Source: Patellaria atrata CBS 101060 (Eukaryota). Taken from it: a stretch of DNA of 64,000 nucleotides. The notes under the pieces were generated by a model. That model saw nothing but the letters and a program-made list of their open reading frames with translations. It ran no database searches and had not been told where the DNA came from. Below, one piece after another: positions 54,624 to 57,634 of the stretch (positions within the stretch are counted from its first letter, which is position 1; every line of letters starts with the position of its first letter). The position numbers and the translations under genes are program-made. The stretch covers positions 1,386,004 through 1,450,003 of the forward strand of contig MU006096.1 in assembly GCA_010093705.1 (NCBI GenBank), read 5' to 3'.

Positions 54624-55733
54624 CTTTCCTCTGGGCGATTTCGATGTAAGCACTGGTAGCATCCAACCTAAGGTGATGTATTGTGGGAACGGATGCGCGG
54701 CCGGCGGATACTCCTTTCTTATTGAATACCCGCACTCTCTCTTCGACCTCCTCCCAAACCAGCAGAACAGGCCAATGCGAATGCTGGCGCAGGTGGGAAC
54801 CTATCGTTCAGCGAAAGAGACTTAACTCGTAAGGCATAGAAGTGGCCGTGTAAAAGATATGGGAGGTTGAAGGAGGTAAGGTAAAGTGGACGGCAAAAGT
54901 TCGAGGTGTCCTGTTTAAAGATTTCGTGGCACAGATGGTCCAAGGTCGAATACGGGGGTGAGCCAAGAAGTTGGAATTTAGATGCTGTACTGTAGTCTAC
55001 TACCGGTAGTGTAACTGACTGTTATAACCCGTCATACCTTTGTGTACAAAGGGGACCTTTAAAAAATATATTGGAGGAGAATAGAGATGAAAGGGTGGAA
55101 GAGACACGGTTCTCTCTCGCTGGGTAGTCAAATCGACAGGCTAAGGTCCGTTTGATTGCTTCTCCAGGGGTTCCTTAAATTGTTGTTGATAGTCTAAACG
55201 TCGACTTTGATGATCTACTTTCAGGCTATCACCTACATACATACTGTACAACTCGTCGCAGAAGAATAACATCACGTCCCAACAACTCGAGGCCATTAAT
55301 TGTCTACGTTCTTCAGGCATCTGTTAGTACAGGATGGGGCTTCATTGTCCTGTACAGTATATTCGCTTTCATTCATACAATAGGGCTGGACTCCGTTTAG
55401 CCCTCAGCATATACAGCAAGTTAGAGTATTATGAGAGGTAAAGGATAGGCGCAACGTTGTACGCCCAGCTCAACATTTTCGATATAGAATGTCGGCATCG
55501 GAAACCACAGAATCATCTATCACTGTATTGCAACCCCAAAGATGATACTTTCATATTTTTTATCAATTATCTTCATTGATGTGGGATACAAAGCTTTCAT
55601 CTCTCTGTCTAATTCAAAAATCCCCTCTGCAGTGGAATTAGTAGCAGACGCACGTGCGGTATCTATTGAAAAGAGATATTAGCACGATTCATTTCCAAGA
55701 CCTTTTTCAAGAATAGAATGAACATAAAGCATG

Positions 55734-55973
55734 TGCTCAGAAAAGCCGATTTACTCATGCTCCATCGCCGGCTGAAGGTCCAGAGCAGCCCAAGACGGAC
55801 CGTCCTAGCCAAAAGCTCTGAAGCCAGCATTACACACATCGGATACCGTCCGGGAGACGATACCACGACGTACAACTCCACAACCAATCATCCCTGTCAA
55901 AGACAAGTCCGGTGCGGAAGGGTGGCTCGGGGAAAAAGCGTCATTGAATGGATAGACTGTTGTCATCGTCGCA
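55734..55973 (-). ncRNA. Long (~240 nt) intronic box C/D snoRNA, SNORD17-like
   Basis: C box ACGATGA (55969-55963), then CAGTCT-ATCCATTCA and D' ATGA (55944-55941). D box CTGA (55740-55737). Terminal TGC/GCA stem. The guide is complementary to LSU UGAAUGGAU. Confidence 0.72.
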
Positions 55974-56114
55974 GGGGGATAAAGAGAATAGATTAATACG
56001 TACCCTTTCTGAGATAACAAATGTGTGCTGGACCCTCGGATATTAGGTGATATCTATCGTTCAGATGTTAATGAAGCACTACGGACAACGTCTTATATTC
56101 ATAATGAGAGTGAG

Positions 56115-56206
56115 GCTCGTAAGTCAGACAATGTAAGCTTTGGTATATATTTTCCTCAATGTAGTTCGGTAGCAGAACTGAAATTGAATACGCTCATCAT
56201 GCGAGC
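56115..56206 (-). ncRNA. snR61: Intronic box C/D snoRNA snR61/U38 type
   Basis: C box ATGATGA (56200-56194). Guide CAGTTCTGCT (56180-56171) plus A precedes D' CCGA. D box CTGA (56127-56124). Flanking GCTCG/CGAGC stem. The guide matches LSU AGCAGAACUG. Confidence 0.88.
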
Positions 56207-57064
56207 TAGAGATGAAGTGAGAAGTGTAAGACGGGATTGTAACTTACCATCTCTCTAAAAGTGAGTCTTGATCAGTAAGGGCTGCATCAAGATCTTGCGC
56301 GAGGGCAGCACTTGGATTATTGATTTCGTCCAAATTCAATGACGGGATGTCTTCCGCGTCAGTTACCGCGACTACGACGGATGCGTGAGGTGGTCCCTCA
56401 ACCGGTCCAACAGGGAAAACGCGTGTGATCAGGGTCGCAATATCAGCAAGTTTCGCCTTCTGTTGTTGTGCGATCTCCGTCATATCTGCTGCAGCAGGAC
56501 TGCCTTGCAGAAGACTAAATGAGAGTGTCTCAACCTCCCCCAAGCAAATTTCGAAATAGCTCAACATCCGGGGCAGAAACAAAGTATTTATTGCGACGAC
56601 GTTGACGAGCAGGCCTCTCCTTGGGTTTTGCGCCAACAGGGGACTGAACATCCTTCTCTCCGTGTGCTTGACCAGCAGTCTCTAGGAGACAATTTGCTCC
56701 AATTCTCGTTTTAGCTTTCGATCCCGATGTTTCGTGACTAATACGTTTAAAGCCACCGGCGTTATCCCATTCAAAACATTCGAAGAATTCATACCTTTGT
56801 TCACGTGGGAGGGATTTCCCCTTTTTATACGGCGACCACTCGACCCAAGCATCGCTTGTGCAGCAGTTTCAAAGTCTCTCTTTCTGCCGCCTGTGGTGCG
56901 ATTTCCACCACTTGCTTCCGACTGATGTCCCTGAGCCTTCCCTCGCACTCTATTTCTTGTTGTAGCCATTGTAGATTTGAAACACAACCGTCAATGTCTC
57001 TAGATAGTGCAAGGTCAGTGCAAAAACTCGGCAAGTGGCGCCAGTGTGTACGATAGAGCCAAGT

Positions 57065-57141
57065 GAACTCAGTTGGTGGTGCATGTTCGAATGATCACGG
57101 AGGAATATCCAGAACTATATGTGATTTGTCTCATCATATAA
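57065..57141 (-). ncRNA. snR55: Intronic box C/D snoRNA snR55/U33 type
   Basis: C box ATGATGA (57137-57131). Guide CATGCACCACCA (57085-57074) plus A precedes D box CTGA (57072-57069) and is complementary to 18S UGGUGGUGCAUG. An extra element GACAAATCAC is complementary to 18S GUGAUUUGUC. Confidence 0.9.
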
Positions 57142-57634
57142 AGAAAGCTTGTTAGGAATGCTGAAAACGGATGTTCAACTTACGAGAGACACACACCGAC
57201 TTAATTATGTTAAAGAAGTTGGTCTATCCTAGTAGGACCTCGAAATTTATGCAATTGCATAGTCTATGCGTTGAAATGGAAGAGTATTGACTCTTATCAA
57301 AAAGACGCACCATGATCCCACACCACCAAAGGTGGTTGGGCACAGGTACGAAGCCATGTTTACTCGAGAATGCTGAAATAGTTTCTTAATAGATGGCGTT
57401 TGATTTCATCTTTCGAGAAATGTTAAATCTCGATGTAGAGTTCGGTGCTGCTGCGTTGGTGATGAGACAGGTTGTCAGTATTCGGTACGGTAAAAGAAAG
57501 TGAAAAACTTAGAGTGGTCTAAGCTCCCCAATCCTTGCTTCAATGGACATATCTATAAACCACCACATTCCAGTTCCCACTTTCTGAGCATCAATTCGGC
57601 TCCCAATGGCCAACAACCCCAAAAGTTTACCAAA

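Follow-up and report, generated by a model that had tools for sequence, protein, structure and literature searches.

Within a 64-kb stretch of contig MU006096.1 of the fungus Patellaria atrata CBS 101060 (64,000 nucleotides, here called the window), we have analysed a locus on the minus strand that carries three small nucleolar RNAs (snoRNAs) of the box C/D class, namely a homologue of snR55, a homologue of snR61 and a long RNA of the CD_53 family. An original prediction made from the letters alone had placed one such snoRNA in each of three introns of a hidden host transcript, and this arrangement was recovered for the snR55-like RNA, for snR61 and for the long C/D RNA. We read the minus strand of positions 55000-58200 and verified the proposed introns by script; the GTAAGT and GTACGT donors and the branch points were found on that strand where they had been predicted. 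The features of the locus, in window coordinates and in the direction of the host transcript, are as follows.

57184..57260, minus strand: 3' portion of the first exon of the predicted host transcript, ending at the GTAAGT donor (57183); its upper limit was set arbitrarily
57183-57000, minus strand: predicted intron 1, 184 nucleotides (nt), with a GTAAGT donor, a CTGAC branch motif and a CTAG acceptor
57067-57141, minus strand: snR55 homologue (RF00472, 25.7 bits, plus guide complementarity); C box AUGAUGA 57137-57131, D guide 57088-57073, D box CUGA 57072-57069
56248..56999, minus strand: exon 2, 752 nt, between predicted introns 1 and 2
56247-56028, minus strand: predicted intron 2, 220 nt in the version of the original prediction, with GTAAGT, CTAAT and CCAG
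56121-56205, minus strand: snR61 homologue (RF00476, 57.5 bits against a gathering score of 45, full model 1-85); C box 56200-56194, D' guide 56184-56170, D' box CCGA 56169-56166, D box 56127-56124
56004..56027, minus strand: micro-exon read from the sequence, 24 nt (50 nt or 5 nt with other acceptors)
56003-55663, minus strand: predicted intron 3, 341 nt, with a GTACGT donor, a CTAAT branch motif and an ATAG acceptor
55737-55968, minus strand: long box C/D RNA of the CD_53 family, ~232 nt, identified by homology to Neurospora crassa CD53 and related loci; box C variant CGAUGA 55968-55963, invariant 19-nt element 55962-55944 followed by a D'-like AUGA, structured insert of ~165 nt, C'-like GCAUGAGU, D box CUGA 55740-55737
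55560..55662, minus strand: first part of the last exon, which follows the ATAG acceptor (55663); its lower limit was set arbitrarily

The snoRNAs lie 27-42 nt past the predicted 5' splice sites and ~67-93 nt ahead of the predicted 3' splice sites. Between introns 2 and 3, the 24-nt micro-exon of the original prediction and its 5-nt alternative both exist as sequence, the latter by way of a CAG at 56011-56009. A third acceptor, which had not been listed, is an ATAG ending at 56054 with a branch-like TTAAC before it. It would leave a 50-nt exon and lies +67 nt from snR61, which makes it the best fit to the spacing of 65-79 nt that is conserved in the related loci described below.

The snR61 and snR55 homologues

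When the two shorter RNAs were checked against Rfam, snR61 scored above its gathering score (57.5 bits) and snR55 below its own (25.7 bits). At gathering thresholds snR61 is the sole Rfam family in the whole window, so that its score alone places it in the family. The guides of both RNAs were compared with eukaryotic ribosomal RNA (rRNA) taken from ribosomal DNA (rDNA) that contaminates prokaryote assemblies. Positions refer to L034, a complete rDNA unit with an 18S of 1800 nt, a 5.8S and a large-subunit (LSU) rRNA gene carrying one group I intron.

The D' guide of snR61 forms its best duplex (-17.5 kcal/mol) with L034 25S at ~1131-1141, and its box+5 target is A1135 of L034. This complementarity to 25S also places the RNA in the snR61 family. 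A1135 corresponds to A1133 of yeast and A1114 of N. crassa, an equivalence taken from published tables. Upstream of its D box, snR61 has a conserved UAUACCAAA stretch (window 56150-56141, minus strand) that can pair with L034 25S at ~1123-1131 (-13.5 kcal/mol), and the pairable 25S bases are those immediately 5' of the methylation duplex. This predicted pairing looks like accessory base-pairing and not like a second guide.

The snR55 homologue was added to the gathering-threshold result by a permissive Rfam scan of 54500-58500, in which RF00472 scored 25.7 bits against a gathering score of 50, with the D-box guide aligned. The score therefore does not place it in the family; its guide complementarity and its C and D boxes do. 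Its D guide forms 12 contiguous pairs with L034 18S at ~1265-1276 at -24.7 kcal/mol, the next-best match being -17.1. By the box+5 rule the target is U1268 of L034, which lies 11 nt 5' of the helix-34 CCG and is equivalent to yeast U1269. In a comparison by eye, the RNA also resembles N. crassa CD34 in Additional file 1 of PMC2780460 (papers are cited here by their PMC numbers).

The order in which snR55 precedes snR61 is retained, as originally noted, and puts the locus in the lineage of the snR57-snR55-snR61 cluster. The absence of snR57 was likewise borne out within the 64-kb window, where a permissive Rfam scan gave no match to it at E ≤ 1 and no family besides snR61 and snR55.

The CD_53-family RNA of intron 3

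The original prediction had noted a different long snoRNA following snR61. Such an RNA is indeed present in intron 3, but it is not new: it is a member of the known orphan family CD_53 (PMC5824354), described there as the only C/D family of 200-300 nt, as still an orphan, and as occurring in Pezizomycotina. The permissive scan of 54500-58500 matched no Rfam family in intron 3 at E ≤ 10. The assignment comes from a visual comparison with N. crassa CD53 as printed in PMC2780460 (Additional file 1). By eye, the two RNAs are identical in the final five bases of box C and in the 19 nt that come next, and two other blocks are common to them, an internal GAGCCA..CC.UCCGCAC.GGA and a D-proximal UAAA.CGGCUU.UCUGA. 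Together with this similarity, a length of 232 nt from box C to box D places the RNA in the family.

To describe its structure we used an alignment of seven CD_53 copies, six of them distinct, over 260 columns. RNAalifold gave a long-range helix, formed by columns 40-53 with 218-229, that encloses three more helices and links the sequence right after the D'-like box (AYGA) to the sequence right before the C'-like box (GCAUGAGU or GCAUGACU). With a spurious box-C hairpin left out, 92.7% of cells are paired in the consensus fold against a shuffled mean of 84.3, and none of 500 shuffles reaches the observed value; the fold was derived from the same alignment used to test it, which favours the fold. 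Both sides are changed in 14 of the 46 pairs, and pairing is 34-53% when the partners are slid. The predicted fold is thus supported by covariation. It leaves two conserved stretches unpaired, the 19-nt element after box C and a block AGCCAYYCUYCC.

Related loci and neighbouring genes

Related loci were found with a 20-mer of the window made up of the end of box C and 18 nt of CD_53. It matched nine metagenomic fungal contigs, and in all nine the match is the CD_53 RNA itself and never a target. In eight of the nine, snR61 lies upstream on the same strand, 109-179 nt away; it scores 43-48.1 bits there and attains the gathering score in five of these eight loci. In seven of the nine, snR55 follows further upstream (30.1-33.4 bits). 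The missing cases are explained by contig ends: L060 has only 117 nt of upstream sequence and lacks snR61, and L059 and L060 lack snR55. Three of the contigs (L053, L058 and L061) are identical over the CD_53 RNA, and there are about four divergent groups, namely the window, L055 with L060, L054 with L059, and L053/L058/L061 with L057 and L056.

The splice signals recur in these loci. When the sequence past each RNA is read for a loose pattern of branch motif plus acceptor, 24 of the 26 cases have their first match at 65-79 nt; only the CD_53 copies of L054 and L059 depart from this, with +40/41. On the upstream side, 20 of the 27 cases have a donor by a strict pattern, and the rest have GTAGGC or GTCAGG or are cut off. 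Around snR55, the related loci show a donor on the upstream side and, 70-79 nt past the RNA, an acceptor; on the 3' side of CD_53, a CTRAY motif and an AG are found in all related loci that have downstream sequence. Between the introns of snR61 and CD_53, L055 and L060 have an exon of 1 nt and the group of L053, L056 and L057 one of 54-66 nt; in the window this exon would measure 5, 24 or 50 nt. The exon that separates the intron of snR55 from that of snR61 spans 40-75 nt in the related loci versus 752 nt in the window.

In L055 (2460-2467) and L060 (~1670-1680, minus strand), the acceptor that ends the snR61 intron is separated by a single G from the donor of the next intron, that of CD_53 (..ATAG G GTATGT.. 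and ..ACAG G GTACGT..). This may represent a 1-nt exon or two juxtaposed introns.

Two flanking genes are conserved in the loci that reach that far.

53388-54341, minus strand: Anp1-family gene, downstream of the host
58017-58619, plus strand: RNase PH-like gene, upstream of the host and on the opposite strand

Since order, strand, splice-signal spacing and flanking genes repeat in independent metagenomic contigs, the pattern goes beyond chance. By their best Anp1 matches, the loci resemble Pleosporales, Botryosphaeriales and Myriangiales/Dothideales; these matches are hints only, as the reference consisted of 120 proteins retrieved with the window's own Anp1 and is biased.

The host and the RNase PH-like (exosome-type) gene are divergent (57184-58619), and a few hundred bases at the most separate their apparent starts. 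Their orientation and closeness suggest that the two may share a bidirectional promoter. A short block at 57625-57718 is kept in L053, L054, L055 and L057.

Eukaryotic rDNA in prokaryote and viral collections

Eukaryotic contamination is seen in at least 51 contigs (L002-L052) that belong to assemblies listed as bacterial or cyanobacterial and that contain the 3' end of a eukaryotic 18S. A single Virgibacillus assembly accounts for ~20 of them, all short, and a Nostoc assembly contributes one of 31.7 kb whose small-subunit (SSU) and LSU genes both have group I introns. A further contig, L001, came from a viral collection and was found with a primer for internal transcribed spacer 1 (ITS1); at 3632-4543 it has a 912-nt match that spans the whole eukaryotic SSU model of 1831 positions. 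It could be either a strongly reduced SSU or a mis-assembly, and L001 was dropped as an rRNA reference on account of this odd match.

Discussion

We consider it likely that the region is the filamentous-ascomycete form of snoRNA cluster II, in which a probably non-coding host gene, transcribed by RNA polymerase II and resembling UHG and GAS5, has three short spliceosomal introns that each hold one box C/D snoRNA. Cluster II comprises snR57, snR55 and snR61; according to PMC3596301, the snR57 intron has been lost in all Euascomycetes, where all members of the cluster are intronic, and internal exons shrink or vanish, exon loss leading to juxtaposed introns. N. crassa has UHG-like non-coding hosts with one snoRNA per intron (PMC2780460), and splicing of such clusters was confirmed by reverse transcription PCR in N. 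crassa and other fungi (PMC2780460, PMC3596301). The original prediction spoke of a rearranged version of an ancient cluster. The descent from the cluster holds, but the loss of snR57 is general to Euascomycetes and not specific to this locus (PMC3596301).

Sequence homology, guide complementarity, conserved order, splice signals and neighbouring genes were computed here, and from them we infer transcription, splicing, trimming and the rRNA modifications. Once spliced out and debranched, each intron would be shortened by exonucleases to the core that the proteins of the small nucleolar ribonucleoprotein (snoRNP) protect. Intron 1 would give rise to the snR55 homologue, which would direct 2'-O-methylation of the 18S uridine equivalent to yeast U1269, and intron 2 to the snR61 homologue, which would direct methylation of the 25S adenosine equivalent to yeast A1133. 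Intron 3 would yield the ~232-nt orphan CD_53 member, with normal C/D ends and the invariant 19-nt antisense-like element between box C and the D'-like box. In this RNA, the covariation-supported helix would bring the D'-like and C'-like boxes together around the ~165-nt insert.

Several observations weigh against this reading. Only two public sequencing runs were found to contain this DNA, and both are genomic, with contigs that show no joints. RF00472 stays below its gathering score both in the window and in all seven related loci that have snR55, and the model appears to have been built mainly from yeasts. The acceptor of intron 2 is ambiguous, with candidates at 56054, 56028 and 56009. The related loci were chosen by way of the CD_53 motif, so they show that CD_53 is linked to snR61 and not that CD_53 follows every snR61, and all of them are Dothideomycetes-like by the biased Anp1 reference set. 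Box C of the window's CD_53 reads aCGAUGA where the other six aligned copies have UGAUGA, its D box being a canonical CUGA. Finally, exon 2 of the window is 752 nt long and contributes open reading frames (ORFs) to the computed spliced forms. The last two points bear on alternatives that are weighed below.

The first alternative is that the host is protein-coding; exon 2 would then be translated through ORF A, ORF B or both, and the introns with the snoRNAs would interrupt or follow the coding region. Besides the length of exon 2, it could draw on ORF A, which has 108 codons once a possible extra, snoRNA-less intron of 113 nt (56682-56794, minus strand, GTATGA ... CTAAA ... CCTAG) is removed, on ORF B, which has 150 codons when read across the micro-exon, and on the public annotation, which has a 161-amino-acid protein at the locus.

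56124-56651, minus strand: region matched by the 161-amino-acid hypothetical protein of P. atrata CBS 101060

The host ORFs matched no Pfam family at E ≤ 1. In a large protein collection, searched by word index and within a restricted length range, this protein was the sole match of ORF B (99% identity), and ORF A had none. The scattered ORFs of the minus strand do not join into a conserved protein in the Pfam and protein searches, and within the same length and word-index limits the exons have no conserved coding potential, as in a UHG-like host. Exon 2 resembles neither the remainder of the window nor any of the loci retrieved, and the corresponding exon of the related loci measures only 40-75 nt. 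The final 26 residues of the annotated protein are the translation of 56204-56124, from box C to box D of snR61, with the TGA of the D box as the stop codon. Because its last residues translate a snoRNA, the public protein model is an artefact, which leaves the host gene effectively without annotation. The locus is hidden, as originally claimed, in that the public gene model reads snR61 as a protein tail. On this evidence we regard a coding host as improbable.

The second alternative, to which we give slightly less credence still, is that the third RNA is a decaying copy in P. atrata and no active snoRNA. The changed box C would fit this, as would a D'-like box that reads AUGA instead of ACGA. 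However, the RNA has kept its D box and C'-like box as well as the 19-nt element and the paired columns, the window sequence fits the covarying structure, and the intron signals are intact. That the snoRNAs arise without splicing, either by cleavage of an unspliced polycistron (as Rnt1 does in budding yeast) or from promoters of their own, and that the splice-like motifs are incidental, is very unlikely: Saccharomyces cerevisiae does process the cluster without introns (PMC3596301) and N. crassa CD53 is listed as intergenic (PMC2780460), but in divergent loci each of the three RNAs is flanked by donor, branch and acceptor motifs whose distances hardly vary, and splicing of such clusters was demonstrated in N. 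crassa and other fungi by the experiments cited above. The cluster II reading, with a probably non-coding host and splicing-dependent release, is therefore the one we retain.

What the CD_53 RNA of this cluster could act on was addressed by complementarity. Comparing the rDNA loci, we found no rRNA target of CD_53 that holds across lineages. As an rRNA methylation guide, the 19-nt element was rejected: its best match in a conserved region is only 9 base pairs (bp) long, at the 25S UGAAUGGAU site (-13.7), and stronger rRNA matches sit in variable segments and differ among rDNA loci. A displaced snR57 was also rejected, as inspection by eye found no complementarity to the snR57 target region. 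A role in helix-45 acetylation was tested because counterparts of snR45/SNORD13 have been reported missing in fungi other than budding yeasts (PMC9226516; PMC5824354). In most lineages, 18S can pair with two blocks of CD_53: with the internal one over 6-9 bp at 1785-1795, and with the D-proximal one over 6-8 bp at 1753-1760. These two short complementarities flank C1773 and lie within or beside the yeast snR45 sites, which are at 1781-1798 and 1760-1767 of 18S (PMC5464676).

When all rRNA positions were ranked, however, the bipartite pairing at helix 45 came 219th of 5144 in the best of six arrangements, and helix 45 was outside the top five sites for either element. Deviations between lineages are mismatches rather than compensations, and there is no 5' extension before box C. 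Helix 34 did no better as an acetylation site (best rank 331 of 5144). Members of the snR45/SNORD13 class have two antisense elements around helix-45 C1773, one of them in a 5' extension, and CD_53 does not show this arrangement. It is thus only faintly conceivable that CD_53 forms a specialised C/D snoRNP that is not a methylation guide, is co-expressed with snR55 and snR61 and acts on the 3' part of 18S, possibly as a snR45/SNORD13 counterpart that directs Kre33/NAT10 to acetylate helix-45 C1773. If it did, its internal block would pair with 18S 1785-1795 and its D-proximal block with 18S 1753-1760. CD_53 is like snR45/SNORD13 and snR4, the guides of 18S cytidine acetylation, in being a long, atypical and orphan-looking box C/D RNA; snR45/SNORD13 carries an antisense element in its 5' extension, whereas CD_53 has neither a 5' extension nor an Rfam match.

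We know of no CD_53-like RNA in the S. cerevisiae unit. That unit, SNR57-SNR55-SNR61, has the same snR55 and snR61 guides in the same order, but it is intronless and includes snR57 (PMC3596301). Closer to the present locus is cluster II of Euascomycetes as described in PMC3596301: snR55 precedes snR61, each is in its own intron, there is no long conserved ORF, snR57 is absent and internal exons are tiny or nearly lost. The differences are that the text of that paper gives no third long snoRNA after snR61, and that exon 2 of the window measures 752 nt. In N. crassa, the same three RNA families are all on chromosome IV, and hosts are non-coding with one snoRNA per intron (PMC2780460). N. crassa CD34 (snR55) and CD38 (snR61) are intronic there, while CD53, an orphan of 212 nt confirmed by cDNA and Northern blot whose cDNA begins 4 nt ahead of box C, is listed as intergenic, neither intronic nor clustered, unlike the CD_53 of the window (PMC2780460). 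The mammalian UHG and GAS5 genes, with which cluster hosts were compared in PMC2780460, are likewise non-coding spliced hosts with one box C/D snoRNA per intron; their sequence is unrelated and their snoRNA content different.

This locus, which is real and conserved, is an ordinary representative of a class already described, and our additions are modest. Cluster II, the loss of snR57 in all Euascomycetes, the presence of one snoRNA per intron and the vanishing of exons were already published in 2009 and 2013. CD_53 as the third intron of cluster II was not found in the literature: the term CD53 occurs zero times in the text of PMC3596301 (figures and supplements aside), snR61 occurs zero times in the text of PMC5824354, whose cluster discussion concerns another cluster, PMC12309372 has only the unrelated CD_531, and PMC12848939 has nothing on filamentous fungi. 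What appears to be new is CD_53 as a constant third intronic member of the cluster, the 752-nt exon in P. atrata, and an annotated protein, the only one at the locus, that ends in a translation of snR61.

These additions have consequences for annotation and for the CD_53 family. In the public genome, the host is represented only by a hypothetical protein with a translated snoRNA tail, and like errors are likely in other filamentous fungi. The exon that lies between the snR61 and CD_53 introns varies among lineages from 1 nt to 66 nt, which supplies further cases of the exon loss and juxtaposed introns known from the literature. With its conserved neighbourhood in several Dothideomycetes-like lineages, CD_53 would be the fixed third cistron of the ancient snR55-snR61 cluster and no stray intergenic gene. 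This linkage would tie its expression to that of two rRNA methylation guides, and it gives a defined intron for functional work on CD_53.

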